The notes beneath the pieces are model-generated. The model did no database searches, was not told where the DNA came from, and saw only the letters and a list, made by a program, of their open reading frames with translations. A DNA stretch of 64,000 nt from an uncultured Candidatus Binatia bacterium. GTDB taxonomy: Bacteria > Desulfobacterota > Binatia > Bin18. The stretch lies in the NCBI GenBank assembly GCA_965243735.1, contig CBDEVZ010000008.1, forward strand, positions 3,995,180 to 4,059,179, given 5' to 3'. The translations under genes were made by a program, and so were the position numbers. The stretch's first letter is position 1; each line of letters starts with the position of its first letter. Below are positions 22,488 to 62,151 of the stretch, in pieces.

Positions 22488-22663
22488 TGACGGGTGGCTC
22501 TCCGGTTCCACGCCTTCTGCGACTTCCCGCTTGAGGCGTGGACCTGCCCGGCCCTCCGTTCGTCCTGAGCGTAGCGTAGTAAAGTCGAAGGGCGAACGGA
22601 GGGTCAGAGGTGCAGCAGGGCTACACCTCCCACACACGTAGAGCAAATACCAATGCTGTTCTC

Positions 22664-22747
22664 GTCATTCCTGCTTCCGCAGGAATCCAGCCCCCGACTT
22701 CCAGACCCCGGATCAAAGCCGGACCCCGGACATGATCCGGGGTCCGG
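22664..22747. repeat. Intergenic repeat family 2 (hairpins GTCATTCCTGC..GCAGGAATCCAG and CCCCGGACATGATCCGGGGTCCG)
   Basis: A second copy lies at 52626-52716. Both have the same two palindromic hairpins in the same order. Confidence 0.5.
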
Positions 22748-22757
22748 CAAGACGAGA

Positions 22758-25700
22758 GTGGTTATATTGCGTCGCTTGTTCATCTCTCTGCTGACCCTTG
22801 TCGGTGTTGCCCTGAGCGGGGCGGTTGTCGGCCCTGGCACGGCTCATGCGCAAGGGAGTGACATTGACTTGGCTGTCAGCATAGTCCTTCAGGACAACGT
22901 ACAAAATCCAACCATTACCGTTGCGAATTATGGGTCTGACAACGCGTACCATGTACGGGTTGTGATGAAGGTTGACGGCATTACGCTCGGTACTACGCTC
23001 GGCCGCCCATCGCCAGGCACCGTTGCGCTCCACCCAACTGATTCCACCACTACACTGATTTGGAGCATTCCCCGGATGCCGGGGAATAGAACCTCATACA
23101 AGTATCTATTACGCACGACAGCTTCGACTTCGATAACAGTGGTTCAATATACAGCTACAGTCCATAGTGGCGTTTTCCTTGAGCCCGAGGCATTGCGGCA
23201 CAACAACCACGCCGAAGTCTGGCAGCTGAGAATCTCTGGGACTCGGACCGAGACGCCGGACCCTACATACGCTATCGAGGCGACAGTTGACAATCGTTTT
23301 CCGCAGGCCCAAGGGAGCGTGACCTTTACGCTGGTTGCCAGAAACTTGGCAACGGGAGGCACTGTGGGTCATCTTTCAGATGCTCGGGTAGACGTTCTTC
23401 TGCCTGCGGGGGGCTTGACCTATACATCGCATACCGCTCCAACAGGCACCAGCTATGATTCCAACACCGGGATATGGACCATTGGCGATTGGCGACAGAC
23501 TACCGCCACCCACTCGCTAACGCTGACGGCGACGCTGGCCGCCGACGCCGTGCTGAATGAGCAATGTGTGACCGCGGAAATATCGGCCAAGCCACCGGAA
23601 CCAATTGACGAGACGGTGAACAACCGGAGTACGGTTTGTTTGGGGGTGCTCAACGAGCCCGTGCTGTTCCAGAGCGAGCAGGTTAACCTGTTCACCCCCT
23701 ACCCATGCGTTGGTAATACTACCTCCCCATGCAATAGCCAAGACACAGTGGAAATGCTCGCACTCAAAGCAGAAGGAGAGCAATATATTCTGCCTCAGGC
23801 CACTACCGTTCAAGTATTGGACCCCGAGGGGCGCATCGTTGACGGCGCGAATATCGCGTGGAGGATTCCCTCTAGTGACACTCTCACTTTGAAACCCTCT
23901 ATAGATAATAGCTTGCTCTCTTCTTCTGATTGGACCAAGTGGCTGTGGAAAATAGCAGCAGTGCAACTGCCGACTGGGGGGCACCTCTCCATCGGCCCAG
24001 CAACAAGTACCGCCTTCGCCTATGTACACACTGGGACCAAGGCCCAGCATCCGCCTGGCGGCCTCACAGCCCTGCCCGCGGCCCTGAAGACAGCAGTACC
24101 GGTATGGATCAAATTCGAGGCCCTGGGAACTTACATCGTAAACTTCACTCAGGCAACCGCCCACGCCACCGCTAGTGGCGACTGCGACACCGACGGTGAC
24201 AACACCAACGACGCCCTCTGCGCCACCGAGGCCTACACCTTCCATGTCGGCCCGGTGGCTGAGTTGGCCGTGCGCGACGACGGTCCCAGCCCGGACGCCA
24301 CCTCCAGCCAGCGTGCCTTCACCATCATGGCCCTCAATACCGGCCCGGACTCCGCCCCCGCGGCCAAGGTGACCGTGGACCTGCAAGGCGCCAGTGTCAG
24401 TCCGCCCATTGCCAGCCAGGGCACCTACCGCAGCGGCGAGTGGTTCCTAGGCGAGTTGCAGACCACAGACTACTACCAGACCCTTGGCCAAACCGCCGGC
24501 CCGACCCTGACCTTCATCACCACCGACCCCGTGGATGCCCCCATCACCGCCACCATCACCAACACCCAGGACTACCAGGTGTGCATCGACAGCAGCGGCA
24601 ACGACCTCAGCCACACCACCCAAGCCACCTGCGAAGCCGACACCACCAACGGCGGCAGTTGGCACACCGCCAAGTACTACGACTACATTTCCACCAACAA
24701 CACCGCCACCGTGACCGCGCAGACGGGAACAGCCCCCCCACAGGCGGACATCACCGTCGAGTGGACCGCGCCGGCGGATGTCACCGTGTCCCGCTACCAG
24801 GTCTGGCGCCAGGGCAGCCCCTGGAAGCTGATCGCGGAGGTGCCGACGGGCCAGACCAGTTACACAGACTCCACTGCCGAACCCGGCCGGGCGTATCTTT
24901 ACATGGTCCGGGCCATGGACGCCCAGGGCATCCCTGTGTCGTCAGAGACACTGGTGGCCGCACCACCCCAGACCGGCGGCCAGGGCGGCCAAGACGGTTC
25001 GGGCGGTTCGACCCGTCCTCCCCCGACCGACCACCACGGCAACAGTCCGGCCACCGCCACTCCCCTCGCCCCCACCGCCCGCGTCGGTGGCCTGCTGCAC
25101 TACGGCGACCAGGATTACTTTCGCCTCGTCCTGCCCCACACCGGCCTGCTGTACGTCGAGACCACCGGCTGGAGCAACACCGTCGGCACCGTCTGGCAAG
25201 GCGGCGTCGAACTGGGCAGCGCCGAACTGGGCGGGCGACTGTACAACTTCAAGCTCGGCGTGCCCGTCCAGCCCGGCCCGGTCGTCATCCGGGTGACTGA
25301 GCGGTCGCCGACCGCCTTCGGGACCTACCGCTTGTACACGCGCTTCATCGCCGGGGCGGTCGAGCAACCGCGCCCCATCACCGTGCAGAACGGCCTGGGT
25401 ATGGTAGCCGGCTGGCTGTGTAGTGAAGACCCCGTCGTCCTGGAAATCGACGGCCTGCCCTATCACCCGGCCCCGCAGCCCGCCCCGGTTCCTCCCCCAC
25501 TCCCCCACGTGGTCGGAACCGGCGGCTCCGGGCTGCCGCCCCGGGCGGTTGATCCCCACGAGCTGTGCGACGACACGGCCACCGGCTTTGGCCTGCCCGT
25601 CAACTGGAACCTGCTGGGCGACGGCCAGCACACCCTCATCGCCTACCTGGACGGCATCGAATTCGCCCGCACCCTCGTAGACGTGACGACCCTGGGCGAG

Positions 25701-26291
25701 GAGTTCGTCCACGACGCCCACGGCACCTGTAGCGTGGCCGACTTTCCGCTGCCCGACCACAGCGTCAGCCTGGTGTGGCAGGAAGCCGGCCAGCACTTCG
25801 CCCTGAGCGACGGCCAGCCCCCGCCGTCCGTCGGCGCCACCAGCGCCAGCGATGTGCTCGGCCGGCTGGAAACCCCCGCGCCCAGCTCCTTTCAGAGCGG
25901 CCGGGGCAGCATCAGCGGCTGGGTGTGCGACGCCGAGGCCGTCAGTGTCGAGATCAACGGCACGCCGTATCCGGTCGCCTACGGCACGGCGCGGTTGGAC
26001 GTGGCGGCGGTGTGTGAGACCCCGGCGCCCGGCTTTGGGCTGAGCCTCGACTGGAATCGGCTCGGGCCGGGCGACCACGAGGTCGTGGCCCTGGCCGACG
26101 GGGCGGAGTTCGGGCGGGCCACAGTGCGGGTGACGACCCTGGGCGCGGCGTTCGCGCGCGACGCCGAATCGGCGTTTATACGGGGGCTGGCCGGGGAATG
26201 CGTGGTGGAGGACTTTCCAGCGCCCGGCGAGGCCGTCCATCTGGAGTGGCAGGAGACCACCCAGAACTTCGTCATTACCGGCGTCGAGTAA
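22758..26291 (+). CDS. Giant secreted modular protein: DUF11 repeats - FN3 - PPC-like domain - tandem ~115-aa Cys-containing C-terminal domains
   Basis: Signal peptide (RRLFISLLTLVGVALSGAVVGPGTAHA). Start is uncertain, either GTG 22758 or TTG 22767. DUF11-like (G.W.IGDW...TLT). FN3. PPC motif HYGDQDYFRLVL. Two C-terminal repeats (SGWLC/SGWVC...GFGL..NWN/DWN.LG.G.H..VAL.DG.EF.R..V.VTTLG..F...G.C.V.DFP..G..V.L.WQE..QNF). Confidence 0.8.
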   Translation: MVILRRLFISLLTLVGVALSGAVVGPGTAHAQGSDIDLAVSIVLQDNVQNPTITVANYGSDNAYHVRVVMKVDGITLGTTLGRPSPGTVALHPTDSTTTLIWSIPRMPGNRTSYKYLLRTTASTSITVVQYTATVHSGVFLEPEALRHNNHAEVWQLRISGTRTETPDPTYAIEATVDNRFPQAQGSVTFTLVARNLATGGTVGHLSDARVDVLLPAGGLTYTSHTAPTGTSYDSNTGIWTIGDWRQTTATHSLTLTATLAADAVLNEQCVTAEISAKPPEPIDETVNNRSTVCLGVLNEPVLFQSEQVNLFTPYPCVGNTTSPCNSQDTVEMLALKAEGEQYILPQATTVQVLDPEGRIVDGANIAWRIPSSDTLTLKPSIDNSLLSSSDWTKWLWKIAAVQLPTGGHLSIGPATSTAFAYVHTGTKAQHPPGGLTALPAALKTAVPVWIKFEALGTYIVNFTQATAHATASGDCDTDGDNTNDALCATEAYTFHVGPVAELAVRDDGPSPDATSSQRAFTIMALNTGPDSAPAAKVTVDLQGASVSPPIASQGTYRSGEWFLGELQTTDYYQTLGQTAGPTLTFITTDPVDAPITATITNTQDYQVCIDSSGNDLSHTTQATCEADTTNGGSWHTAKYYDYISTNNTATVTAQTGTAPPQADITVEWTAPADVTVSRYQVWRQGSPWKLIAEVPTGQTSYTDSTAEPGRAYLYMVRAMDAQGIPVSSETLVAAPPQTGGQGGQDGSGGSTRPPPTDHHGNSPATATPLAPTARVGGLLHYGDQDYFRLVLPHTGLLYVETTGWSNTVGTVWQGGVELGSAELGGRLYNFKLGVPVQPGPVVIRVTERSPTAFGTYRLYTRFIAGAVEQPRPITVQNGLGMVAGWLCSEDPVVLEIDGLPYHPAPQPAPVPPPLPHVVGTGGSGLPPRAVDPHELCDDTATGFGLPVNWNLLGDGQHTLIAYLDGIEFARTLVDVTTLGEEFVHDAHGTCSVADFPLPDHSVSLVWQEAGQHFALSDGQPPPSVGATSASDVLGRLETPAPSSFQSGRGSISGWVCDAEAVSVEINGTPYPVAYGTARLDVAAVCETPAPGFGLSLDWNRLGPGDHEVVALADGAEFGRATVRVTTLGAAFARDAESAFIRGLAGECVVEDFPAPGEAVHLEWQETTQNFVITGVE

Positions 26292-26804: not shown

Positions 26805-29800
26805 GTGTGCAGTAGCGTCCGACCCATTCCCCCGCATCCGAGGCGTCATCCGTTCCGCTTCCCTATTGCGCTGAGTCTGATCCTGGCCGCACTGCTGGGC
26901 GGTACGGCAGGAGCGCAGCAACCTTCTTCATTGATACGCTGGCGGGCCCAAGCTGGCCCTATCCTGACTATCCCAATAGCGTGGCGGTCGCCAGCGACGG
27001 CACCATCTACCTGGCCGACCGCGACAGCCATACCGTCTTACGGGTAGAAACGGACGGGAGCCTCAGTGTCCTGGCGGGAACGGGATTCGCCGGCTACAGC
27101 GGCGACGGCGGAGCAGCAGCGGCAGCCCAACTCAACACGCCCACCGGCGTGGCGGTGACCGCCGATGACGCCACCGTGTACATTGCCGACCGAGCCAACA
27201 ACCGCATCCGCAAGGTCGATGTGGCCACCCGGATCATCACCACGTTCGCCGGGACGGGAAGCGCCGGCTTCAACGGCGACGGCGGGGCAGCAACGGCAGC
27301 CGTCTTGAACCTGCCCATTGGCGTGGCGGTGGACGGCGACGGCAACGTGTACATTGCCGACCTGAACAACCACCGCATCCGGAAAGTGACGGTAGCTACC
27401 GGAGTTATCGACACGATTGCGGGCTCGGGGGCTTACGGCTCCGGGCAGGGCGGCTACGGAGGGGATAACGGGCCGGCAACGGCGGCGCGGCTCAACAACC
27501 CCGTCGGTGTGGCGGTGGACGGCGACGGCAATGTGTACATCGGGGACTGGAGCAACAACCGCGTGCGCAAGGTAGATGTCAGTATGGACCCTCCGACCAT
27601 CACCACGATTGCGGGAAACGGGACCTCCGGTTTCAGCGGTGACGATGGCCAGGCGACTGCGGCTCAGCTTGCGAACCCCTATGGTGTAGCGGTGGCCAGC
27701 GATGGGACGGTGTACATCACCGATTCGACCAACCAGCGTGTGCGCAAGGTGGCCACCGACGGGGTCATTACCACGGTTGCGGGCTCGGGAGCGAGCAGCG
27801 GCGACATCTACGAGGACGGCATCCAGGCAACCGCAGCGCGGCTTGTGAATCCCCGCGACGTGGCGCTGGACAGCAGTGGCAATTTCTATATTGCTATGCA
27901 GGGTCAAAACGACCAAGGCGCCATCCGCAAGGTTGATACCAGCGGGATCATCACCACGGTCGCGGGGGGCTGGACCCGCGGCTTCAGCGGTGACGGCGGG
28001 CCGGCGAAGGCAGCCCGGCTTAATGGAGCCACTGACGTGGCGGTCGACAGCAGCGGCAACGTGTACATTGCCGATTACACCAACAACCGCATCCGCAAGG
28101 TCGATACCAGCGGGATTATCACCACATTTGCGTCTACGGGGATCACGAGCCCCCGTGGCCTGGCGGTCGACAGCAGCGACAACGTGTACGTTGCTCAGAA
28201 CCACCGTATCCTGAAGATTGATGGCAGCACGGCTCCCCCGACCATCACCACAGTCGCCGGAACGGGGAGCAGCGGCTTCAGCGGCGACGGCGGAGCGGCA
28301 ACCTCGGCCCAGCTCGACTCTCCCTATGGCGTGGCAATCGACAGCGCCGGCAACATCTACATCGCCGATGGGGGGAATCATCGTGTGCGGAAGGTCGACG
28401 TCAGTGCGGACCCGCCGACCATCGCTACGTTCGCGGGCTCGGGGAGCCATAGTTCCGGAGGGTTCAGCGGCGACGGCGGAGCGGCAACCTCGGCCCGGCT
28501 CGACTCTCCCTATGGCGTGGCAATCGACAGTGACGGCAACGTGTACATTGCCTGTTATTTCAATCACCGGGTCCGCAAGGTCGACGTCAGTGCGGACCCG
28601 CCGACCATCGCTACATTCGCGGGCTCGGGGAGCCATAATTCCGGTGGCTTCGGCGGCGACGGCGGGGCGGCGACCGCAGCCCGGCTTAACAGCCCCTACG
28701 GCGTAGCGGTGGCCAGCGATGGGACGGTGTACATCGCCGATGCGAACAACCGCCGCATCCGGGCCGTGGCGACCGACGGGACGATTAACACAGTGGCGGG
28801 AACGGGGACGGGGATCACCTTACCAGGCGTACCCGACGGCAGCCTGGCGACCGCTGCCACTGTCTATTTTCCCAGAAAAGTCGCAGTCTCCAGCACCGGC
28901 GCTGTGTACATCGCCTGGAGTAACCTGGTGAGCGTGTTGACGACAAACGGACCGCCACAGGCGCGTGACGCCAGCCCAATGACGCCAACAGGGACGCAGG
29001 CTATCATCGCTCTACCGGTATCCGACCCGAACGGTGATCCGATGACCGTAACGGTGAGCACGCCGCCAACAAACGGCACGACGACGGTCTCCGGCACTAC
29101 CATCTACTATACGCCGAACGCGGGCTTTACCGGCGTTGACACCTTCGCGTACACGGTCTCCGACGGCCAGGGCGGCAGCGCCACGGCAACGATCAGAGTC
29201 AGGGTGGGAGCCGAAGCCGGGGCCCCGCCCCCGCCCCCCGCGGACGGCGCAGGCGGCGCAGGCGGGGCGGGCCGGCGCCAGCCAACCGACCACCACGGCA
29301 ATAGCCCGGCCACCGCCACTCCGCTGGCTCCCACCGCCCGCGCCGGCGGCCTGCTGCACTACGGCGACCAGGATTACTTTCGCCTCGTCCTGCCCCACGC
29401 CGGCCTGCTGTACGTCGAGACCACCGGCTGGAGCAACACCGTCGGCACCGTCTGGCAAGGCGGCGTCGAACTCGGCAGCGCCGAACTGGGCGGACGGCTG
29501 TACAACTTCAAGCTCGGCGTGCCCGTCCAGCCCGGCCCGGTCGTCATCCGAGTGACCGAGCGGTCGCGAACCGCCTTCGGGACCTACCGCTTGTACACGC
29601 GCTATCTCCCTGGGTCGATTGACCACCCGCGCCCCCTCACCGTCCAGAACGGCCTGGGCATGGTAGCCGGCTGGCTGTGCAGCGCCGACCCCGTCGTGCT
29701 GGAGATCGACGGCCAGCCCTACTACCCGGCCCCGCTGCCCGCGCCGGTCTCCCCGCCGTCCGACCTCGTGATCAGCCTCGGCGGCTCCGGGCTGCCGCCC

Positions 29801-30550
29801 CGGGCGGTTGATCCCGATGAGCTGTGCGACGACACCGCTACCGGCTTTGGCCTGCCCGTCAACTGGAACCTGCTGGGTGACGGCCAGCACACCCTCATCG
29901 CCTACCTGGACGGCATTGAATTCGCCCGCACCGTCGTAGACGTGACGACCCTGGGCGAAGAGTTCGTCCACGACGCCCACGGCACCTGTAGCGTGCCCGA
30001 CTTTCCGCTGCCCGACCACAGCGTCAGCCTGGTCTGGCAGGAAGCCGGCCAGCACTTCGCCCTGAGCGACGGCCAGCCCCCGCCGTCCGTCAGCGCCACC
30101 AGCGCCAGTGAGGTGCTTGGCCGGCTGGAGACCCCCGCGCCCGGCTCCTTCCAGAGCGGCCGGGGCGTCATCAGCGGCTGGGTGTGCGACGCCGAGGCCG
30201 TCAGTATCGAGATTGACGGTACACCGTATCCGGTCGCCTACGGCACGGCGCGGTTGGACGTGGCGGCGGTGTGTGAGACCCCGGCGCCCGGCTTTGGGCT
30301 GAGCCTCGACTGGAATCGGCTCGGGCCGGGCAACCACGAGGTCGTGGCCCTGGCCGACGGGGCGGAGTTCGGGCGGGCCATGGTGCGGGTGACGACCCTG
30401 GGCGCGGCGTTCGCGCGCGATGCCGGATCGGCCTTCGTGCGGGGGCTGGCCGGGGAATGCGTCGTCGAGGACTTTCCAGCGCCCGGCGAGGCCGTCCATC
30501 TGGAGTGGCAGGAGGCCACGCAGAACTTCGTTATCACCGGCGTCGAGTAG
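26805..30550 (+). CDS. Giant secreted NHL-repeat beta-propeller protein with cadherin-like Ig domain, PPC-like domain and tandem C-terminal domains. The signal-peptide exon is out of frame with the body
   Basis: GTG 26805 with GGAGGAG RBS encodes signal peptide MCSSVRPIPPHPRRHPFRFPIALSLILAALLG in frame 0. The body from about 26930 is in frame 2 (..YPNSVAVASDGTIYLADRD). It has more than 11 NHL units (YIAD..NNRIRKVD). The C-terminus is ~95% identical at DNA level to the preceding gene. Confidence 0.7.
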
Positions 30551-30827: not shown

Positions 30828-33800
30828 GTGTGCAGTAGCGTCCGACCCATTCCCCCGCATCCGAGGCGTCATCCGTTCCGCTTCCCTATTGCGCTGAGTC
30901 TGGTCCTGGCCGCACTGCTGGGCGTGGGCGCACCTCCGGTCCAGGCCGCGCCCAGCTTCACCGTTGACAGCATTGACCCGGTGGTCTTCACCACGTCGCC
31001 TGGGACCGGGTCGGGTTGTACGCAGCCCACCAACTCCGTCACCCTGCCCGACGCCACCGGCACGGGGACCATATCCTACACCATCACCCCCACCCTGCCC
31101 GCCGGCATCACGCTCTCTGGCAGGGATCTCACCGCCGCACCAGCGACGGTGCAGGCCCAGGCCGCTACGGCCTACACCTACACTGCCACCGACGACGCCG
31201 ACGCCCAGACGGCCTCCCTCACCTTGACCATTGAGGTCGTGGACGAGAGAGCCGTGTTGCAGACCCTCTACAATGCGACTGACGGCCCCAACTGGAAGAC
31301 CACAACCGGCGGCTGGGCCAATCCCATCACGGCCACCTGCCTGGCGGACTTGCAAGGCGTCACGCTCACGAGTGGGCGGGTAGCCAGAATCTCTCTCATA
31401 GAAAACAAGCTGACCGGCTCGATTCCCCCTGAACTGGGCAAGCTAACCGGCCTGACCCGTCTCTTCCTCAACAGCGTCGAACCGGCCGACCCGAATGACA
31501 ACCAACTGACCGGAGAGATTCCCCCTGAGCTGGGCAAGCTGACCAGATTGACCCAACTCCAACTCCACAACAACCAACTGACCGGAGAGATTCCCCCTGA
31601 GCTGGGCACCCTGACCGAGCTGACCTGGCTCTGGCTCTACAACAACCAACTGACCGGAGAGATTCCCGACCTGAGCAAGCTGGCCAAGCTGAGACTGCTC
31701 CACCTCCACAACAACCAACTGAGTGGGGCGATCCCCGCCGGGACGGATAATGCTAACAATCCGACCGGGTTGGCCAAACTCACCAACCTGGAGGTGCTTA
31801 GCCTCTCCGACAACCAACTGACCGGAGAGATTCCCCCTGAACTGGGCACCCTGGCCAACCTGCTAAATCTCTATCTCGACAATAACCAACTGAGTGGGGC
31901 GCTTCCCACAGAGTTGGGCAGCCTCGCCAACCTGAGCGGCCTCTTTCTCAACAACAATCGACTGGAGGGCGCGCTTCCCACGGAGTTGGGCAACCTGACC
32001 TACCTGACCTATCTCTGGCTCCACAACAACCAACTGAGCGGGACCATCCCGACCCAATTGGACAGCCTCACCAGCCTGATCTGGCTCTATCTCCACAACA
32101 ACCAACTGAGCGGGACCATCCCGACCCAATTGGGCAGCCTCACCAGCCTGCAACGGCTCTATCTCCACGACAACCAACTAACCGGGGCGCTTCCGACCCA
32201 ATTGGGCAGCCTCGCCAGCCTGCAAGGGCTCTATCTCTACAACAACCGACTGAGCGGGGCGCTTCCCACGGAGTTGGGCAGCCTCGCCAACCTGCAACAG
32301 CTCTATCTCTACAACAACCCCCTGAGCGGCCCGGTGCCGTCAGGATGGGGCGGCAGCACGTATCCTCTCACGAGCCTGACTGATCTTGACCTCAGCTACA
32401 CCAACCTGACCGGCACGCTGCCAACCGCCTTGGCCACCCGGCGGGATGCCGATCCCCCCACCCTCACCGTGACGTGGGACACCATCGTTGACCGGACCTC
32501 CCTGCCCACCGAAGTGGCGAGTGTCCGCATTGAGTGGGCTTCCCCCCCCGATCCGACCGTCACGGATCCCACCGCCTTCAGCGTGGGGCCGCCGGCCGGC
32601 ACCACCTTCCCCGAGCCCCGGCAAATCTATACCCTGACGGCCCTCGATAGTGGCGGGGACGCCGTAACGGACCGCCTGAGCGCCTCCATAGAGGTGTGTC
32701 TGCCCCGACCGGCGGGCCTGACGGCCCCACTCTATGTGTACCGCTACCAGCCGGCGGCGGACACGACCCAGCCGGGACGCTGGGAGCGTTTGACCGCGGG
32801 GTGGCGCGTCAGCGATAGGGAGGTGTGCGCCACAGTCTCGCAGTTCTCCGACTTCCAGGTCGGCACGTACACGCCTCCGCCGCCTCCGCCACCGTCACGA
32901 CAAGGCGGCGGGGGTGGTCGTCCCCGCGACGACCATGGCAACTCCGCCAGCCGGGCTACTCGGATTCCGCTGACCGCCCGCATGGTCGGACAGATCGGCA
33001 CCCGCAGCGATGTCGATTATTTCACGCTCACCGTGCCCCACGCCGGAATCCTGGTCGTCGAGACCACCGGCTCGACCGATACCCGCGGTACGGTGTGGCA
33101 GGACGGCGCACGGCTGGCCACCGCCGATAGCGGGGGGACGGGGCAGAACTTCCGGCTCAGCGTGCAGGCCGAAGCCGGACCGGTGGTGATTGCCGTACGG
33201 GGCAACGGGCGACAGACCGGCCGCTACGTCTTACAGACGACCCTGGTCGTCGGCTTTCTGGAGAACCCTAGCCCGGACTCCTTCCAGAGCGGTATCGGCA
33301 CCCTGTCGGGCTGGGTATGTGAGGCCGACGAGGTCGTGCTGGAAATCAACGGCACACCCTTTTCTGCCGCCTACGGCACGGCCCGCAGCGACACCCAAGA
33401 CACGTGCGGAGACACGGACAACGGCTTCGGCCTGCTGTTCAACTGGAACGAGCTGGGCGACGGCCGGCACGAGGTCGTGGCCCTGGTCGATGGGGTCGAG
33501 CTGAGCCGCACCAGCGTGACCGTCACCACCCTGGGCACGCCGTTTCTGCGGGAGGCAAGCGGGACGTGTGAAGCCACCGACTTTCCGAGCACGGGTGAGC
33601 ATGTGACCCTGGTATGGCAGGAAGCCAAGCAGAACTTCGTCATCACCGACGGCGGTAGCCCGCCCACGGGCAGCTCTGCCGTTGAAAGCGAAGTCACCGG
33701 CTTTCTGGAGAACCCCGCCCCCAACTCCTTCCAGAGCGGGGTCGGGCTGCTGTCGGGCTGGGTGTGTGAGGCGGATGGCGTCACCCTGGAGATCGACGGT

Positions 33801-34106
33801 CAGACGGTGACAGCTGCCTACGGCACTGACCGAGCCGACACGGCCGACGCGTGTGGCGATACGGACAACGGCTTTGGGCTGCTGTTCAACTGGAACGAGT
33901 TGGGCGACGGGGACTACGAGGTCATCGCCCGGGCTGACGGGGTAGCGTTTGACCGGGCCACAGTACGGGTGGTGACGCTGGGCGAGCCGTTTCTGCGCGA
34001 GGCGCGCGGGACGTGTGAGGTGGTGGACTTTCCAGAGGTCGGCGACACGGTGACGCTGACCTGGCAGACAGCCCAGCAGAACTTCGTCATCACCGCTGTC
34101 CGGTAG
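30828..34106 (+). CDS. Giant secreted plant-type LRR protein: putative Ig domain - LRRNT-like cap - ~20 LRRs - PPC-like domain - tandem C-terminal domains
   Basis: Intact 1092-aa ORF with the same signal peptide as the NHL gene. LRRs such as LTGEIPPELGKLTRLTQLQLHNNQLTGEIP are plant LRR-RLK-like. PPC motif SDVDYFTLTVPHAG. Two SGWVCEAD... repeats ending QNFVITAVR. Confidence 0.85.
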   Translation: MCSSVRPIPPHPRRHPFRFPIALSLVLAALLGVGAPPVQAAPSFTVDSIDPVVFTTSPGTGSGCTQPTNSVTLPDATGTGTISYTITPTLPAGITLSGRDLTAAPATVQAQAATAYTYTATDDADAQTASLTLTIEVVDERAVLQTLYNATDGPNWKTTTGGWANPITATCLADLQGVTLTSGRVARISLIENKLTGSIPPELGKLTGLTRLFLNSVEPADPNDNQLTGEIPPELGKLTRLTQLQLHNNQLTGEIPPELGTLTELTWLWLYNNQLTGEIPDLSKLAKLRLLHLHNNQLSGAIPAGTDNANNPTGLAKLTNLEVLSLSDNQLTGEIPPELGTLANLLNLYLDNNQLSGALPTELGSLANLSGLFLNNNRLEGALPTELGNLTYLTYLWLHNNQLSGTIPTQLDSLTSLIWLYLHNNQLSGTIPTQLGSLTSLQRLYLHDNQLTGALPTQLGSLASLQGLYLYNNRLSGALPTELGSLANLQQLYLYNNPLSGPVPSGWGGSTYPLTSLTDLDLSYTNLTGTLPTALATRRDADPPTLTVTWDTIVDRTSLPTEVASVRIEWASPPDPTVTDPTAFSVGPPAGTTFPEPRQIYTLTALDSGGDAVTDRLSASIEVCLPRPAGLTAPLYVYRYQPAADTTQPGRWERLTAGWRVSDREVCATVSQFSDFQVGTYTPPPPPPPSRQGGGGGRPRDDHGNSASRATRIPLTARMVGQIGTRSDVDYFTLTVPHAGILVVETTGSTDTRGTVWQDGARLATADSGGTGQNFRLSVQAEAGPVVIAVRGNGRQTGRYVLQTTLVVGFLENPSPDSFQSGIGTLSGWVCEADEVVLEINGTPFSAAYGTARSDTQDTCGDTDNGFGLLFNWNELGDGRHEVVALVDGVELSRTSVTVTTLGTPFLREASGTCEATDFPSTGEHVTLVWQEAKQNFVITDGGSPPTGSSAVESEVTGFLENPAPNSFQSGVGLLSGWVCEADGVTLEIDGQTVTAAYGTDRADTADACGDTDNGFGLLFNWNELGDGDYEVIARADGVAFDRATVRVVTLGEPFLREARGTCEVVDFPEVGDTVTLTWQTAQQNFVITAVR

Positions 34107-55754: not shown

Positions 55755-58700
55755 TCAGTCCAGCCCGGTGATGACGAAGTTCTGCTGACGCTCCTGCCAC
55801 TCCAGCGTCACCGTCTCGTCGGGCGTCGGAAAGCCCGCCAGCTCCACCCGCTTCGTCAGCCCCCGCACGAACGGCGCCGTCGCGTCCACCAGCGTCACCG
55901 TGACCGTCGCTCGGCTCAACTCCAGCCCATCGACCAGGGCGACCACCTCGTGCGCGCCCGCCCCGAACTCGGCCCAGTTCACCAACAGGCCAAAGCCGGT
56001 GTCCACGTCGCCACACACGTCCAGCGTGTCTGCCCGCTCCGTGCCCGCAGCTGCGGCAATGGCCTGCCCGTCAATCTCAATGACGACTTCGTCGGCTTCA
56101 CACACCCAACCCGAAATGACGCCGATGCCACTCTGAAAGGAGGCCGGGCCGGGGTTCTCCAACACGCCTTCGATTCCACCGGAGCTTGGCGCAGGCGCGC
56201 CTGTTGCTCCCCCCTCCACCGGGGCCAGCACGAAGTTCTGCTGGGACTCCTGCCACACCACCCGCACCTGCTCGCCCGCGCGGGGAAAGTCTGCGACGAG
56301 AAAGCTGCGTTGGAGCCCTTCGACAAACTCCGCCTCCAGCGTCGTCACCGTCACCGAGGCGCGGCTCAGCTCAATTCCATCGACCAGGACGACGACGGCA
56401 TGTGTGCCGTCGCCCAGCAGGTTCCAGTTGAACAACACGCCAAAGCCGTTGTCCGGGTCCCCGCAAATCGCGGCCGTGTCCGCCCGCGCCGTGCCATACG
56501 CCGTCGCCAGTTCCACGACGGTTCCGTCCGCTCGCTCAATCTCGACCGCCACCCCTTCGGCTTCGCATACCCAACCCGAGATGACTCCAATGCCGCTCTG
56601 AAAGGAGTGGGCCGCAGGATTCTCCAGATAGCCCACGATGAGCCGTGCGCTCAGCCTGTAGGCGCCCGTCCGGCCCTGCTCTCCAGCCACGGCGATGACG
56701 ACCTCCCCAGCCTCGACCGGCACGCTGAGGCGGAAGTTCTGCCGCTCCCCGCCGCGGGTGGCCGTGGCCAATTCTGCGCCAGCCTGCCACACGCTGCCCT
56801 GCGTATCGGACGAACCGCTGGTCTCGACCACGAACACCCCGGCCCAGGGCAGGCTGAGCCGAAAATAGTCCCGATCACTCCGGGTGTTGATCCGCCCCGC
56901 AGTGGTGACGGTCCGGGGTGTGACGCGACTGAACGACACGCGGGTCGCCCGCTCGGCGGTGTTGCCGTGGTCGTCGCGGGGGCGGCTGACCTGCCCGCCG
57001 CCACCGCCCGTGGACGGCCGGACGACCTGCTCGGTCTGCTCACTCGTCGCCTCTTTGGCCGTTCCGTCGGCGTCAGTATAGGACGCGGTTGCCCGCAGAG
57101 AGTGGCCAAGATCGTTCGCACTCGGCGTGTAGGTCGCTGTCGTGGCCTCATCAAGCAGCTCCCAGGTCGTGCCATCCTCCGACCGCTCCCAGCGCCACGT
57201 CGCAATCGAGACGGGCGCGTCGGGGTCGACCACGGTCGCGGTGAGGGCCCGCCCCACGAGCGGGCGCGTCGAGGAGACGGTCACCGTGCCTGGCGCATCG
57301 GTGACGGTCACGGTCACGGCGATGGAGGCGGAGTCCGGGGTGGGATCATGCGCCGTGGCAGGGTCAGTGGCCGTGACGGTGACGGCGTAGCTGGTCCTGG
57401 TCTCGTAGTCAAACGTCGTCCCCGAGGCCACCGACAGTTGCCCGCTGCTGTCGTCGATATCAAACGCACCGGCATCCGTGCCCGAGAGCGTATAGGTCAG
57501 CGTCGTGTCATTGGGGTCGGTGGCGGCGACCGGAGCACCCACAGGCGTCCCTGCTGTGGCCGTCTCAGTAACGCTGCGGGTGGTGGTGGCGCCCTCCGCA
57601 AAGGAGGGCGCCTCGCTGAGGGGCGTCTCCGTGAGGGTGGATGACCAGACGCCGTCGCCCTGGGCGTTGACCGCCCGCACCTGGACATCGTACCCCACGG
57701 GCTCCAAGCCGCTGAGGGTGTAGGACAGCGCGCCGCCGGCAGTCCAGCCGGTATCCACCTCGGTCCAGTTGGCATCGACCGTCTCATCTGCGGTGGTCTT
57801 GATGTAGCGCACCTCGTAGCCGGTGACCGCGGAGGCGCCGGGGTTGGTCGGGGCCGTCCAGACAACGGCGAGTGAGCTGTATCCTGGGGTCAGCGAGTCG
57901 AGGCTCGGAGCCCCGGGGGTGGACCGATGCCCGTAGACGGTCAGGCTCCACGAATTCAGCGTGCCGGTGTCCTCATTCCAGACATCGAGGAGGCGCAGCG
58001 TCCACGTCCCGGCGGGGTTCTCACCCAGGTGCTTGGCCGAGCCGAGCCGCACGCTTCCCGTGAGTGGACTGAAAGATCCACCGGCTGGAACGGACAAGAC
58101 GGACACCTTCTCCGACGGGGAGACCAGTTCTACCTGCAAGTCCCGGAATCTCATGTGGCTGAGGTTGACATTGATATCGACGAACTCGATGAACTCGACC
58201 TCAGCGCCCATCGGGAGGCTGCTGCTGACCGGGTCGCTGGTGAAGCAACCGGAGGGGTCGGGGCAGTCGGGGATACTCAGGTTGAGAGTGGCGGCCGAGT
58301 CGACCTTCTGCTCCACGAACGTTGGCAGCGTGGTCCAATCGGCGGCCACATCCACGGCGGCCCTGGCATCCACCACCCCAAAGCCGTACTTGTGGTTGAA
58401 GTGGTAGCGGTCCGTGTTCGCGCCGTACTTGAGCGCCCCGTCCTCCCAGCCGGTGTCGTCCGCGTCATTCTTGCGGGCCGACGCCGCCAGGATGAGCTTC
58501 ACGTCCCGCCAGGTCAGGGCGGTGTTGGCGCTGCGCACCAGCGCGGCCACGCCGGAGACGATGGGCGTGGCCGCGCTGGTGCCGGTGAAGCCATCGCTAT
58601 AGATATATCCGTCGTCGTTGTCGGTGGTGATGATTCCGTGGCGATCATCGTCAGTCTTCTGGAGTCCGGCCTGCGAACCCGACGGTGCGCAGACCCACAG

Positions 58701-60884
58701 GTTGGAGCCCTGTTCCGAATACGGGGCGTGCTCCCCTTGGTCAGTCACCGCACAGACTGTGGTCACGCCGTAGTGATTGGTGACCCCCTCCAAGCTGGCA
58801 TATTTCCGTGGGCCTGCGTTCCCGGCGGCAAAGACATAGACGGTGCCCTTATCCCCGGCACCCTGCGCCAGTCCTGTCTCTATCGCCGTCTCCCAGATGG
58901 CGGGGATGAGCTCCACTCCGGCGCCGCTGCGAGCGGTGCCCCAACTGTTGTTGGAGACATGCGTCTCCACCAAGTTGCGTTGCATGGCGTTCGCCATGTT
59001 TTCATCGGTCGGAGCCTGGATGAAGTTGTAGCCGTAGATCGTCGCCCTGGGCGCGACGCCGCGCACGCCCAGACCGTTATCCCGCGCGGCGATGATCCCT
59101 GCGACTGCGGTGCCGTGGTTATTGTCGGGATTATAGATATCGGTCGGGTCTTCGCCCTCTTTGGCGGTGTAATCGTGGTTCCGCGTCGCCTCGACGTTGG
59201 CGCTCAAGTCTTCGTGGTCAGCATCCATGCCGGTGTCGACCACGGCCACATTGATTCCGGCTCCCAGGATGCCGGCGGCCCAGACCGCTTCGACGTTAAT
59301 GTCCTCGTCTGACACGCCGCCTTTGCGTTGCCCCGCGTTATTCAGATGCCACTGACAGCCGTACAGCGGGTCGGTGATCGAGGCCGGGGTGGCGACGCCC
59401 TCACACAGCGCCGCAAATCTGTGGTAGCTCGGATCGGCAAGGGCGAGAATGGTGTAGTTTCCGGTACTGGAGGCCGTGACCTTGATGTAGTAGGTGCCCA
59501 CGGTTAGGCGGGTGGCGGAGAATACGGCGTCGGAGGCCGTAGACACCGTGACCGCGTTGCCGTCCGCATCAAGCAACGCTCCGCTGATACTCACCCCTAC
59601 GGCTACGACGGCCCTCACGACGATGTCCGTGGTTTCGGTGACCTCGAAGCGAAAGTGATCCACATCCGACGTGGAGGCGATGTCCCCTCCGCGCGCTTCA
59701 CCAAGGCGCAGGAGAGTGGCGGTCGCGGTGGTGTCGCCTGGATCCGTCACGGTGTTAACGTGCACGTTGTAGAACCCGTCCTCACCATCATACTGACGGC
59801 TATTGATCTTAATGTAGTAGGTCCCGGCGTTGAGTGAGTGGCGGACCAGAGCCGGATTCTCTTTAGGACGGCCCGGCCACAGCGAGCTGCCGCGGTTGGA
59901 AGTGATCTCCGTTGTTCCGTTGCTTTGCAGGAGTGTCACGACCGGACTTTCAATACTGCCGGTAGTATGAATGATGACCTTGGTCGTTGCCGAGAGCGTG
60001 AGCTTGAAGTAATCCTCGTCATCGTTAAAGCCACCGCCGGGAACGAGGATCCCCTGCTCTACGGCGATTCCGTCACTATCGAAGGTGATCTCGTGCGCGT
60101 CGGCAGTACCGCTGCTATCGACTATCGCCCTGGTATGCAGGACGTAGGCCCCCGTCGTCCCTCCATAACTGGCAACCTTGATGTAGTAGGTGCCTGCGGC
60201 GAGGGTTTTCCACACGAAGAAGTTCAACGGGGCGCTGGACAGCGGGTCGTCATCGGAAAACGGGGTGTCATCGTTACTGGCAAGCACCGTGCCGCTGCTG
60301 TCCTGGAGTTCTCCTACGGTATCGAGATCACCAGCCGTCCAGATAAACAGGCCGGTCTGTTGCGTCAGCGTGAACGTGAAGTAGTCCACATCGGTCCCAG
60401 GGGTGATCCCGCCTGCCATATCGGTGTCCAGGGTCAGGGCCGTCGCGGTTGAGGTACTGTCCCCATGATCCAAAGTGGTCCCCGTGACCGTGCCGGACCA
60501 GTCTCCGTCGCCGGTGGCGTTGACCGCTCGCACCTGCACGTCGTACTGGGTGCTTTCAGTCAGCCCGGAGATGGTGTAGGTCAGGCTGCCGGTAGTCCAG
60601 GCGTCGTCTTCCTCGGTCCAGTTGGCGTCGTTCGTCTCGTCGTCGGCGGTCTTGATAGAGCGCACGTCGTAGGCGGTGATGGCCGAGCCGCCGGTGTTGG
60701 TGGGCGCGGTCCAGGTCACGGCCAGGGTGAGCCCGGAAGTGTTCCTGCCGGCCGTCACGGTGGCGATGGTGGGAGCGCCGGGCACGGTGGGGGTCTGGGC
60801 CTCGACTGCGCCGGTAATCAGCAGCAGCCCACACACGCCCGCCACTGCCGTCCGCAGCAGGGTTTTCACGACGCTCAGGCGCAT
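55755..60884 (-). CDS. Giant secreted kexin-like subtilase (S8 with P-domain). It carries FN3, three N-terminal PPC domains, cadherin-like domains, a PPC-like domain and tandem C-terminal domains
   Basis: 1709 aa. Signal peptide. S8 catalytic triad context VAVVDTGMDADHEDL / HGTAVAGIIAA / GTSAATPIVSGVAAL. P-domain (GTWTLRLLDVWNEDTGTLNSWSLTVYGH). PPC motifs DVDYFTF, DEDYFKL, DVDHFRF. C-terminal cassette ends QNFVITGLD. Confidence 0.9.
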   Translation of the reverse strand: MRLSVVKTLLRTAVAGVCGLLLITGAVEAQTPTVPGAPTIATVTAGRNTSGLTLAVTWTAPTNTGGSAITAYDVRSIKTADDETNDANWTEEDDAWTTGSLTYTISGLTESTQYDVQVRAVNATGDGDWSGTVTGTTLDHGDSTSTATALTLDTDMAGGITPGTDVDYFTFTLTQQTGLFIWTAGDLDTVGELQDSSGTVLASNDDTPFSDDDPLSSAPLNFFVWKTLAAGTYYIKVASYGGTTGAYVLHTRAIVDSSGTADAHEITFDSDGIAVEQGILVPGGGFNDDEDYFKLTLSATTKVIIHTTGSIESPVVTLLQSNGTTEITSNRGSSLWPGRPKENPALVRHSLNAGTYYIKINSRQYDGEDGFYNVHVNTVTDPGDTTATATLLRLGEARGGDIASTSDVDHFRFEVTETTDIVVRAVVAVGVSISGALLDADGNAVTVSTASDAVFSATRLTVGTYYIKVTASSTGNYTILALADPSYHRFAALCEGVATPASITDPLYGCQWHLNNAGQRKGGVSDEDINVEAVWAAGILGAGINVAVVDTGMDADHEDLSANVEATRNHDYTAKEGEDPTDIYNPDNNHGTAVAGIIAARDNGLGVRGVAPRATIYGYNFIQAPTDENMANAMQRNLVETHVSNNSWGTARSGAGVELIPAIWETAIETGLAQGAGDKGTVYVFAAGNAGPRKYASLEGVTNHYGVTTVCAVTDQGEHAPYSEQGSNLWVCAPSGSQAGLQKTDDDRHGIITTDNDDGYIYSDGFTGTSAATPIVSGVAALVRSANTALTWRDVKLILAASARKNDADDTGWEDGALKYGANTDRYHFNHKYGFGVVDARAAVDVAADWTTLPTFVEQKVDSAATLNLSIPDCPDPSGCFTSDPVSSSLPMGAEVEFIEFVDINVNLSHMRFRDLQVELVSPSEKVSVLSVPAGGSFSPLTGSVRLGSAKHLGENPAGTWTLRLLDVWNEDTGTLNSWSLTVYGHRSTPGAPSLDSLTPGYSSLAVVWTAPTNPGASAVTGYEVRYIKTTADETVDANWTEVDTGWTAGGALSYTLSGLEPVGYDVQVRAVNAQGDGVWSSTLTETPLSEAPSFAEGATTTRSVTETATAGTPVGAPVAATDPNDTTLTYTLSGTDAGAFDIDDSSGQLSVASGTTFDYETRTSYAVTVTATDPATAHDPTPDSASIAVTVTVTDAPGTVTVSSTRPLVGRALTATVVDPDAPVSIATWRWERSEDGTTWELLDEATTATYTPSANDLGHSLRATASYTDADGTAKEATSEQTEQVVRPSTGGGGGQVSRPRDDHGNTAERATRVSFSRVTPRTVTTAGRINTRSDRDYFRLSLPWAGVFVVETSGSSDTQGSVWQAGAELATATRGGERQNFRLSVPVEAGEVVIAVAGEQGRTGAYRLSARLIVGYLENPAAHSFQSGIGVISGWVCEAEGVAVEIERADGTVVELATAYGTARADTAAICGDPDNGFGVLFNWNLLGDGTHAVVVLVDGIELSRASVTVTTLEAEFVEGLQRSFLVADFPRAGEQVRVVWQESQQNFVLAPVEGGATGAPAPSSGGIEGVLENPGPASFQSGIGVISGWVCEADEVVIEIDGQAIAAAAGTERADTLDVCGDVDTGFGLLVNWAEFGAGAHEVVALVDGLELSRATVTVTLVDATAPFVRGLTKRVELAGFPTPDETVTLEWQERQQNFVITGLD

Positions 60885-60901
60885 GGTCTGGAGTCAGCCG
60901 C

Positions 60902-61486
60902 TCACCGTGTTGTGAGTTCTCTCCACCAGTTGGGGCTGGCGATGCGCACCCCGTCCTGGGCGGCCAGGGTGTTGGCCAAGTCCAGGGATGGAAAGCCCGG
61001 CGCGGTCTCGACGAAGAAACTGTTGGTGGTGACTTCCATGACCGACACCCGGTCCAGCGTGATCCGGTTGCGGGCGAAAAAGGCATGCGTCTCCGCCGTG
61101 CTCCACTCCGCCTCCAGCACCAGCAGCACGCCGCCGGGCAGGGTCATCAGGGTGCCTGAGGATTCAGACCGGAAGACCGGTTGTCCGGTGCTTCTCCCGG
61201 CACTGTCCTTGGCGACGATGTGCTCCCCCGTGCTTCTGGTGCTGCTCCCGCTCACCTCCAGGTCGGACTGGAGCACCACCCGCACGGTCCGGTCGCCGTC
61301 CTGGTAGGTGTAGACCTGTCCCTGGACGCCTTGGCCGGCGTCGCCGGGCGTCTGAGGGCTGCGCTGTTGCAGGGCGGGGGCACCTGCGGAAGGCCGGTCG
61401 GTTGATTCAAACTCAAGCGGCTGCGCCCACGCGACCGGCGAGGCAATCACTGCCACCACAGCCACAGCGATACCGACCGTGCTCAT
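60902..61486 (-). CDS. Secreted ~195-aa protein encoded just upstream of the subtilase. It is a candidate stand-alone I9-like propeptide, inhibitor or chaperone
   Basis: Start MSTVGIAVAVVAVIASPVAWA has a signal peptide. The C-terminal ...NSFFVETAPGFPSLDLANTLAAQDGVRIASPNWWRE loosely follows the I9 propeptide pattern. Family not recognised. Only 18 bp separates it from the protease start. Confidence 0.45.
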   Translation of the reverse strand: MSTVGIAVAVVAVIASPVAWAQPLEFESTDRPSAGAPALQQRSPQTPGDAGQGVQGQVYTYQDGDRTVRVVLQSDLEVSGSSTRSTGEHIVAKDSAGRSTGQPVFRSESSGTLMTLPGGVLLVLEAEWSTAETHAFFARNRITLDRVSVMEVTTNSFFVETAPGFPSLDLANTLAAQDGVRIASPNWWRELTTR

Positions 61487-61680: not shown

Positions 61681-62036
61681 AAGCCGGCCCGAGACCGGCG
61701 GGGCGTGTCTCACAGTGTGGCGCGTTCCCCCCCGCGTGCGGCACGCCCGTGACGAGATGTCGGACGGGGGCGTGTCTACGGAGCGAACCGGCTAAAGACC
61801 CGACTGGGGGGAGTGGCAGGTCGGATGAGCCGCAGGCGTAAGCCGACAAGACGATCCGCTCGGACTGTATATCCGTTCAGGAGGGAAGATGCTCGCAGAA
61901 CACGACCGTTACGCCCGGTCGCTCGCACAGACATCACCCATACAAGACAGATCAGCTCGGGGTAGGTCGGGGTAGGTCGGATTAGCGAAGCGTAAGCCGA
62001 CACTCTCGATAGAGAGACGCGCAGCGGAGTTCGGCG

Positions 62037-62072
62037 CGATGTCTTGGTCGATGTCTTGGTCGATGTCTTGGT
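62037..62072. repeat. Three tandem copies of the 12-bp unit CGATGTCTTGGT beside the tRNA 3' end
   Basis: CGATGTCTTGGT x3. A GGTAGGTCGG x2 duplication lies at 61960-61980. Confidence 0.5.
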
Positions 62073-62078
62073 GAAGAG

Positions 62079-62151
<73 letters not shown>

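Follow-up and report, generated by a model that had tools for sequence, protein, structure and literature searches.

A small secreted protein as candidate detached propeptide of a kexin-like subtilase in an uncultured Candidatus Binatia bacterium

Subtilases are the textbook case of proteins whose folding depends on an intramolecular chaperone. The stretch of DNA analyzed here, hereafter the window, comprises 64,000 nucleotides (nt) of contig CBDEVZ010000008.1 (assembly GCA_965243735.1) from an uncultured Candidatus Binatia bacterium. Its minus strand carries the gene of a large, secreted, kexin-like subtilase lacking any recognizable propeptide and, directly upstream, the gene of a small secreted protein of 194 amino acids (aa). 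We propose, with a probability of about 0.6, that this small protein serves the downstream protease as a propeptide equivalent, detached and encoded in trans. The functional link between the two proteins is well supported.

The requirement of a propeptide for folding is general among subtilases according to a 2022 survey, where the Aeromonas sobria protease ASP, assisted by an external chaperone, constitutes the exception (PMC9549277). ASP is a kexin-like subtilase devoid of propeptide, and its maturation needs ORF2, a protein encoded just downstream (PMC5638518). The C-terminal Lys of ORF2 lies at the catalytic centre of ASP, for which ORF2 is a temporary inhibitor, and operons homologous to ASP/ORF2 have been reported solely in Vibrio, Shewanella, Chromobacterium and Pseudoalteromonas (PMC5638518).

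The gene pair and its kexin-like protease

Two co-oriented open reading frames (ORFs) were called and translated on the minus strand of the window, 60902-61486 followed by 55755-60884. The original prediction had located both genes correctly and described the upstream product as a separate secreted protein of 195 aa encoded 18 bp away; its secretion and coordinates are right, while the protein consists of 194 residues plus the stop codon and the spacer measures 17 nt. A GAGG ribosome-binding site precedes the 194-aa ORF, and no promoter-like or terminator-like site was found in the 17-nt spacer between the small gene and the protease gene. The pair and the parts of the protease are as follows:

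60902-61486, minus strand: gene of the small secreted, putatively propeptide-like partner, 194 aa, stop codon included in the coordinates
60885-60901, minus strand: intergenic spacer of 17 nt, read from the sequence
55755-60884, minus strand: gene of the multidomain kexin-like subtilase, secreted, without cis propeptide, 1709 aa
59415-60776, minus strand: N-terminal non-catalytic region with FN3 (residues 37-135) and three PPC-like domains (136-490), from Pfam
58377-59372, minus strand: S8 catalytic domain, residues 505-836 (Pfam Peptidase_S8, 3e-43 at 541-836)
57939-58187, minus strand: proprotein-convertase P-domain, residues 900-982 (Pfam P_proprotein, 5e-16)
57015-57917, minus strand: FN3 (~990-1090), Cadherin (1104-1195) and an immunoglobulin (Ig)-like segment without Pfam assignment (1199-1290), from Pfam
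55758-57014, minus strand: C-terminal cassette (residues 1291-1709) made up of one PPC-like segment and, after it, two repeats of ~150 aa, shared with other ORFs of the window

The domain composition announced for this 1709-aa secreted protease was largely recovered. The S8 and P-domains are both matched in Pfam, and the FN3, cadherin-like and shared C-terminal parts are present as judged from Pfam and from the comparison of the window ORFs. The two FN3 copies taken together reach 6e-21. Three N-terminal PPC domains had been claimed; three PPC-like segments were indeed observed, scoring 31.8, 24.7 and 18.2 bits, the third being weak and under the Pfam cut-off, and the N-terminal FN3 preceding them had been missed. 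The protease possesses the catalytic D550, H590 and S770 together with the oxyanion residue N689. In a PDB search, the closest solved relatives of the S8-P core were furin (8e-46), kexin (8e-44) and A. sobria ASP (2e-40), the furin alignment extending across the P-domain. The assertion that the association of S8 and P-domains is uncommon in bacteria was overstated: it is encountered in 19 plasmid records, which stem from a variety of bacteria and one archaeon, and 16 of these records cover at least 80% of the S8+P query.

The absence of an I9 propeptide from the protease, another element of the original prediction, was confirmed, with no match to Inhibitor_I9 or S8_pro-domain in Pfam at E<=0.1. 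Residues 1-490 are wholly occupied by the signal peptide, FN3 and the PPCs, and the mature-start motif DPLYGCQWHL (DPLYGCQWHLNNAGQ) is found at residue 505, right behind the third PPC, which leaves no room for a hidden alpha/beta propeptide. A concealed cis propeptide was considered and rejected, the N-terminal residues being all explained by FN3 and PPC domains. In 10 diverse partner proteases from related loci, a domain scan of the N-terminal extensions revealed neither I9 nor a prodomain; these extensions consist of PPC, FN3 or Spondin_N, one of them with only a weak sub-threshold match.

Among the proteases of the family, the catalytic triad is kept in 76/76 and the oxyanion Asn in 75/76. 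The column equivalent to furin Asp306 holds D or E in 56 of these 76 proteins, and 55 carry the Asp within the SWGP-xDG loop. At the furin subsites, the window protease retains an acidic residue in three of the positions compared (D306 to E, D233 to D, D264 to E) and differs at the others (D154 to T, D258 to R). Its S1-lining loop, at residues ~650-662 (SWGTARSGAGVEL), is unlike that of nearly all relatives and has gained an Arg at the furin Asp258 position, yet the partner of this protease also ends in Arg. A different specificity is possible for this one copy.

The small secreted protein and its C-terminal tail

The small protein can be divided into five parts:

61424-61486, minus strand: Sec signal peptide, residues 1-21, MSTVGIAVAVVAVIASPVAWA followed by QP (AWA/QP), read from the sequence
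61322-61423, minus strand: poorly conserved linker, residues 22-55, predicted to be disordered (low pLDDT; variable in length and sequence in alignment A1)
61136-61321, minus strand: conserved beta-rich N-terminal subdomain, residues 56-117 (invariant columns of alignment A1 and model strands)
60926-61135, minus strand: ferredoxin-like beta-alpha-beta-beta-alpha-beta body, residues 118-187, with SPNW at its end (AlphaFold2 model)
60905-60925, minus strand: C-terminal tail WRELTTR, residues 188-194, proposed to represent P7-P1 with Arg194 in S1 (tail statistics)

Homologues of this protein fall into 453 clusters at 90% identity; the family profile matches 940 representatives at 50% identity. 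The protein itself has no match in Pfam or NCBIfam, nor do 30 members of its family at E<=10. In alignment A1, which gathers 30 sequences with identities down to 46%, conservation is limited to residues 56-194 and includes 31 invariant columns. The beta-rich subdomain follows the consensus YTYxDGDRT..LQxDL...PVFRSE..LMTLP.

The AlphaFold2 model has a mean predicted local distance difference test (pLDDT) score of 71, rising above 90 across the C-terminal half and dropping below 50 over residues 1-53, which appear disordered. The N-terminal subdomain is modelled as beta hairpins between residues 58 and 115 (strands 58-63, 66-79, 89-92, 102-107 and 113-115). In the body, strands 120-124, 147-150, 156-159 and 180-185 and helices 130-139 and 165-175 have pLDDT values of 90-97. 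The order of strands and helices in the modelled body is that of subtilase propeptides, but it is also that of many other ferredoxin-like domains. The I9-like pattern that had been read into the C-terminus is retained as a topology, the beta-alpha-beta-beta-alpha-beta succession at residues 120-185 with pLDDT >90, and not as I9 membership, for which neither a hidden Markov model (HMM) or profile match nor a significant fold match was obtained.

The window protein carries a plain signal peptide, whereas 46/268 family proteins display a lipobox-like L-A-G-C motif at their N-terminus. In P0080, P0086, P0090, P0097 and others of alignment A1, all ~50% identical to the window protein, the lipobox (...LAGCG...) is followed by a long Pro/Thr/Ala-rich linker and then by the core. 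This arrangement in distant homologues implies that the partner would there be membrane-tethered.

The tail was analyzed in 236 family proteins ending shortly past the SSPNW motif. Exactly 7 residues follow PNW in 236/236 of them, with the consensus W-R-E-x-T-x-K/R, and the last residue is K in 138 and R in 68, hence basic in 206/236 (87%). A product-like ligand of the S1 pocket of a Lys/Arg-specific protease would need just such a fixed distance between the body and a basic C-terminus. Read as such a ligand, the tail predicts that the proteases cut after K/R, with R-E-x-T-(T/P/A)-(K/R) as the approximate consensus. Proteases without acidic S1 residues occur in three of the four loci with a non-basic tail end. 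Gln is the third most frequent last residue in the family (14/236). The Vibrio ORF2-family proteins (L083:4768-5214, alignment A2) end in ...GKYRAQ, that is in Gln, as opposed to the Lys described for A. sobria ORF2.

Mutual information between small-protein and S8 columns placed tail position P6 (Arg189 in the window) and the furin Asp233 column (D627 in the window protease) second among ~44,000 pairs. The pairing is charge-complementary, with 41 basic/acidic, 13 basic/non-acidic, 4 non-basic/acidic and 10 non-basic/non-acidic combinations (Fisher p 0.003, with no correction for phylogeny). In furin, Asp233 is among the P4-P6 contacts (PMC2820236).

Related loci and the surroundings of the gene pair

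A scan of species-representative genomes returned 282 loci with a homologue of the small gene, 80 of which were fetched. The closest ones, at 65-77% identity, belong mostly to metagenome-assembled genomes (MAGs) of Candidatus Binatia, although the top one, L003, is titled Thermodesulfobacteriota; the remaining loci, at ~50% identity, are mostly from Dehalococcoidia MAGs, with one Acidimicrobiia and one Candidatus Multivorans. In 78/82 related loci, the small gene is followed downstream on the same strand by the gene of an S8+P protease with 47-65% identity to that of the window, and in most of them the protease ORF opens within ~100 nt of the stop codon of the small gene. The architecture of the partner is variable, with FN3, PPC, Spondin_N or cadherin domains and with the cassette present or absent, and the S8+P core alone is constant.

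The two genes are occasionally fused. A single ORF encodes both the small domain and the protease in loci L023 and L040, and the fused proteins P0134, P0128 and P0241 consist of the small domain, PPCs and S8, with a P-domain match as well in P0134 and P0128. The small domain is N-terminal to the protease in every fusion, and no second signal peptide was seen between the fused parts of P0134 and P0241, the two fusions read. In P0134, P0128, P0124, L040 and the truncated P0110, the K/R of tail position 7 is kept and followed by Q(D/E)PGE, as would be expected of an autoprocessing site.

The two partners have also diverged together. Distances between the small cores correlate with those between the S8 domains (Mantel r 0.865, p 0.001), and the mean divergence of 0.39 for the former and 0.38 for the latter indicates that they are equally conserved. 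Several paralogous small-protein/protease pairs can occur in a single genome, as on OY761159.2 (L005, L006, L010) and CBDDEI010000002.1 (L022, L029, L064). Together with the spread over Binatia, Dehalococcoidia, Acidimicrobiia and Ca. Multivorans, these paralogous pairs suggest that the two genes have multiplied and been exchanged as one unit between unrelated bacteria sharing a habitat. Such Binatia MAGs have been reported from sponge metagenomes, from which a sponge origin of the window may be presumed.

Eukaryote-like adhesion domains are general among the partner proteases. Spondin_N is a domain of the animal extracellular matrix. The partner protease of the Candidatus Multivorans MAG (L051:8556-10706) carries it (2.6e-38) ahead of FN3, PPC and S8.

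The C-terminal cassette of the window protease (~420 aa, residues 1291-1709) recurs with 44-57% identity in three plus-strand ORFs of the window, 22653-26291, 26981-30550 and 30828-34106. The four cassette-bearing proteins are large and secreted, and their N-terminal parts differ: DUF11/FN3, an NHL propeller plus Ig, LRR, and the protease. The two repeats of ~150 aa contain two conserved Cys each; they were modelled as tandem Ig-like beta-sandwiches, with generic PDB matches pointing to no specific function. The cassette may serve in anchoring, sorting or adhesion. The cassette is present in at least 764 database proteins, and no Pfam family covers the module among the 120 proteins listed. Within the related loci, it is restricted to the Binatia group (L003, titled Thermodesulfobacteriota, and L005-L011) and does not occur in the Dehalococcoidia loci.

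A tRNA-Ala(CGC) gene (62078-62151, minus strand) lies ~590 nt upstream of the gene pair on the same strand. After it come a 12-nt unit repeated perfectly three times in tandem (62037-62072) and two copies, 155 nt apart, of an element of ~34 nt (61815-61848 and 61971-62002). These repeats beside the tRNA gene could represent either a repetitive element of small size or the scar of an old integration.

A proposed detached propeptide and competing explanations

Several observations support the reading of the small protein as a trans-encoded propeptide equivalent: both proteins carry export signals, their genes are adjacent and sometimes fused, their sequences co-diverge, the tail is constrained, the modelled body has the topology of a propeptide and the protease has no propeptide in cis. 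The original prediction of a trans-acting propeptide-like partner is sustained in part, by five independent lines: synteny, fusions, co-divergence, the K/R tail and topology. Physical binding, the geometry of the tail in the cleft, foldase activity and inhibition are inferred. In the proposed sequence of events, the small protein and the protease would each be exported by Sec, as the signals read from their sequences indicate. Outside the cytoplasm, the beta subdomain and the ferredoxin-like body would bind the S8 domain, and the tail WRELTTR would occupy the substrate cleft as P7-P1, its C-terminal Arg/Lys being lodged in S1 like the product end of a cleaved propeptide. The small protein would thereby template the folding of the propeptide-less catalytic domain and hold it inhibited, until its subsequent release or degradation yields the active protease. 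The same mechanism has been established for ASP of Aeromonas, with ORF2 as the external chaperone.

The resemblance to the ASP/ORF2 system (PF18492; PDB 3WQB, 2MK4) is apparent at several levels. Both comprise a propeptide-less kexin-like S8+P protease whose gene has a co-oriented neighbour encoding a small secreted protein; in both small proteins, an N-terminal extension precedes the body, which is followed by a C-terminal tail with a basic end; and the window protease shares the start motif DPLY..QWHLNN.GQ with the ASP-like protease of Vibrio. There are also differences. The small gene of the window is located upstream of the protease gene, whereas that of ORF2 is downstream. In contrast to ORF2, the window family has an extra conserved beta-rich subdomain, some lipoprotein-like homologues with Pro/Thr-rich linkers, and fused forms. 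Unlike ASP, its partner proteases are giants, from ~1000 to >2900 aa among the relatives, with PPC and FN3 before S8, and they come from Binatia, Dehalococcoidia and Acidimicrobiia MAGs rather than from Aeromonas, Vibrio and the other ASP/ORF2 hosts.

Other known systems are informative as well. Cis propeptides (I9, S8_pro-domain) have the same beta-alpha-beta-beta-alpha-beta order, ending in a C-terminal strand and a tail whose last residue is the putative P1. However, the small protein of the window is encoded by a separate gene with its own signal peptide and is found in cis, at the N-terminus, in rare fused relatives only; even there, the small domain is not contiguous with the catalytic domain, and the likeness of fold is generic. 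The fungal inhibitor POIA1 and Plasmodium SUB1-ProM are likewise small separate proteins with a propeptide-like fold, and SUB1-ProM is encoded near subtilase genes (PMC6993865). The targets of both keep their own propeptides, which makes them regulators and not replacements, whereas the proteases of the window family have none. With the furin/kexin convertases (S8B), its best solved relatives, the window protease shares the catalytic domain and the P-domain; it differs from them by the lack of an N-terminal prodomain, by acidic S1/S2 residues that are only partly kept and by large bacterial-type extensions (FN3, three PPCs, cadherin and the cassette).

A number of results weigh against a detached propeptide. 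PDB sequence searches with the small protein, by phmmer with the single sequence and by hmmsearch with a profile, returned nothing at E<=10. PF18492 (ORF_2_N) was matched neither by the window protein at E<=0.1 nor by 30 family members at E<=10, and PF05922 (Inhibitor_I9) and PF16470 (S8_pro-domain) remained unmatched by the same proteins at the same thresholds. An ORF2-family alignment was built from the Vibrio campbellii gene located beside an ASP-like protease (L083); hhalign against it gave a probability of 0.1-0.2%, including with a core alignment of 261 sequences. The V. campbellii ORF2, used as a positive control, matched PF18492 at 1e-25 and, weakly, 3WQB_B and 2MK4_A. A Foldseek comparison of the model with the PDB yielded no significant match (best E 0.046). 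Its ranking is headed by ribosomal protein S6 and RRM domains, as befits a generic ferredoxin-like fold; the PCSK9 prodomain appears at rank 26 and the I9 inhibitor POIA1 at rank 42, and the ORF2 chain 3WQB_B is absent from the top 50. Structure prediction, the check suggested originally for an I9 ferredoxin-like fold, delivered the propeptide topology along with fold matches that are generic and not significant. The tail ends in a non-basic residue in 13% of cases, and the fused P0241 has no K/R at its junction, the P0132/L023 type similarly lacking the kept K/R-Q(D/E)PGE. At least 300 aa of PPC separate the small domain from S8 in the fusions, unlike canonical propeptides. In the window protease, the S1 loop reads SWGTARSG, without the Asp typical of the family (SWGP-xDG), and the Glu equivalent to furin D306 is the sole acidic residue left in S1. 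Finally, tail-cleft pairs other than P6 and the Asp233 column show no enrichment, cleft columns representing 3/21 top partners for ~2 expected, and given this lack of general enrichment the covariation results are rated as hints only.

Membership of the small protein in the ORF2 or I9 families was upheld by none of the HMM, profile-profile and fold searches.

The same body of data may be explained otherwise. The small protein could be solely a dedicated inhibitor or immunity protein, in the manner of POIA1 or SUB1-ProM, that shields the periplasm or the cell surface from a protease folding independently of it. Synteny, tail and topology would fit this role equally, stand-alone propeptide-like inhibitors beside subtilase genes are documented (PMC6993865), POIA1 is among the fold matches and lipoprotein-anchored versions would suit the protection of the surface. 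We nevertheless regard an exclusively inhibitory function as rather unlikely. It leaves unexplained how a propeptide-less subtilase folds, since subtilases generally need a propeptide (PMC9549277) and none is present in cis in the partner proteases; moreover, the fusions put the small domain in the position of a propeptide with a K/R junction, and the 1:1 pairing, which extends to paralogous pairs in one genome, suits an obligate partner. Alternatively, a co-transcribed accessory acting away from the active site could be envisaged, be it a surface tether or adaptor for a giant adhesin-like protease, a secretion helper or a substrate. The lack of significant similarity to any propeptide, the very common ferredoxin-like fold, the beta-rich N-terminal subdomain that has no counterpart in I9 and the long distance in sequence between the small domain and S8 in the fusions would all be compatible with such a role. 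It is less probable still than an inhibitor-only function, for the invariant length of the tail and its terminal K/R are hard to reconcile with a tether, the partner architecture varies around a constant S8+P core, and the charge covariation between P6 and the Asp233 equivalent points at the substrate cleft. That the adjacency is fortuitous, or that the small ORF is not a real gene, has practically no chance of being true in view of the 940 clusters at 50% identity, the 31 invariant columns in 30 sequences and a synteny of 78/82 across phyla.

If the small protein is indeed a detached propeptide equivalent, a broader proposal may be put forward more tentatively, at somewhat less than even odds: it would represent a second family of external subtilase propeptides, either evolutionarily separate from ORF2 or diverged from it beyond recognition. 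Such a family would be far larger than that of ORF2, with 940 clusters at 50% identity, and would extend over at least three phyla of uncultured bacteria that are probably sponge-associated. The coexistence of split and fused states would document the fission or fusion of the gene of an intramolecular chaperone, and some homologues from Dehalococcoidia-type loci would, from their predicted lipoboxes, act as membrane-tethered lipoprotein foldases. The tail of each member would be a direct readout of the specificity with which its cognate eukaryote-like protease cleaves. While the concept of an external propeptide has been known since ASP/ORF2, the novelty would reside in this second, large and unannotated family of propeptide-like partners.

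To subtilase specialists, the size and spread of the family and its split and fused pairs are noteworthy. External propeptides would be widespread and no longer the curiosity of a few Gammaproteobacteria, a second, sequence-unrelated family with hundreds of members being added to the first. The natural split and fused pairs would offer a ready system for separating the folding catalyst and inhibitor from the enzyme, and the heterologous expression of such proteases would probably need the small gene. The tail (R-E-x-T-x-K/R) would predict the specificity of kexin-like proteases endowed with eukaryote-like adhesion domains (FN3, cadherin, Spondin_N), and these enzymes of likely sponge symbionts may then process host proteins at basic sites.

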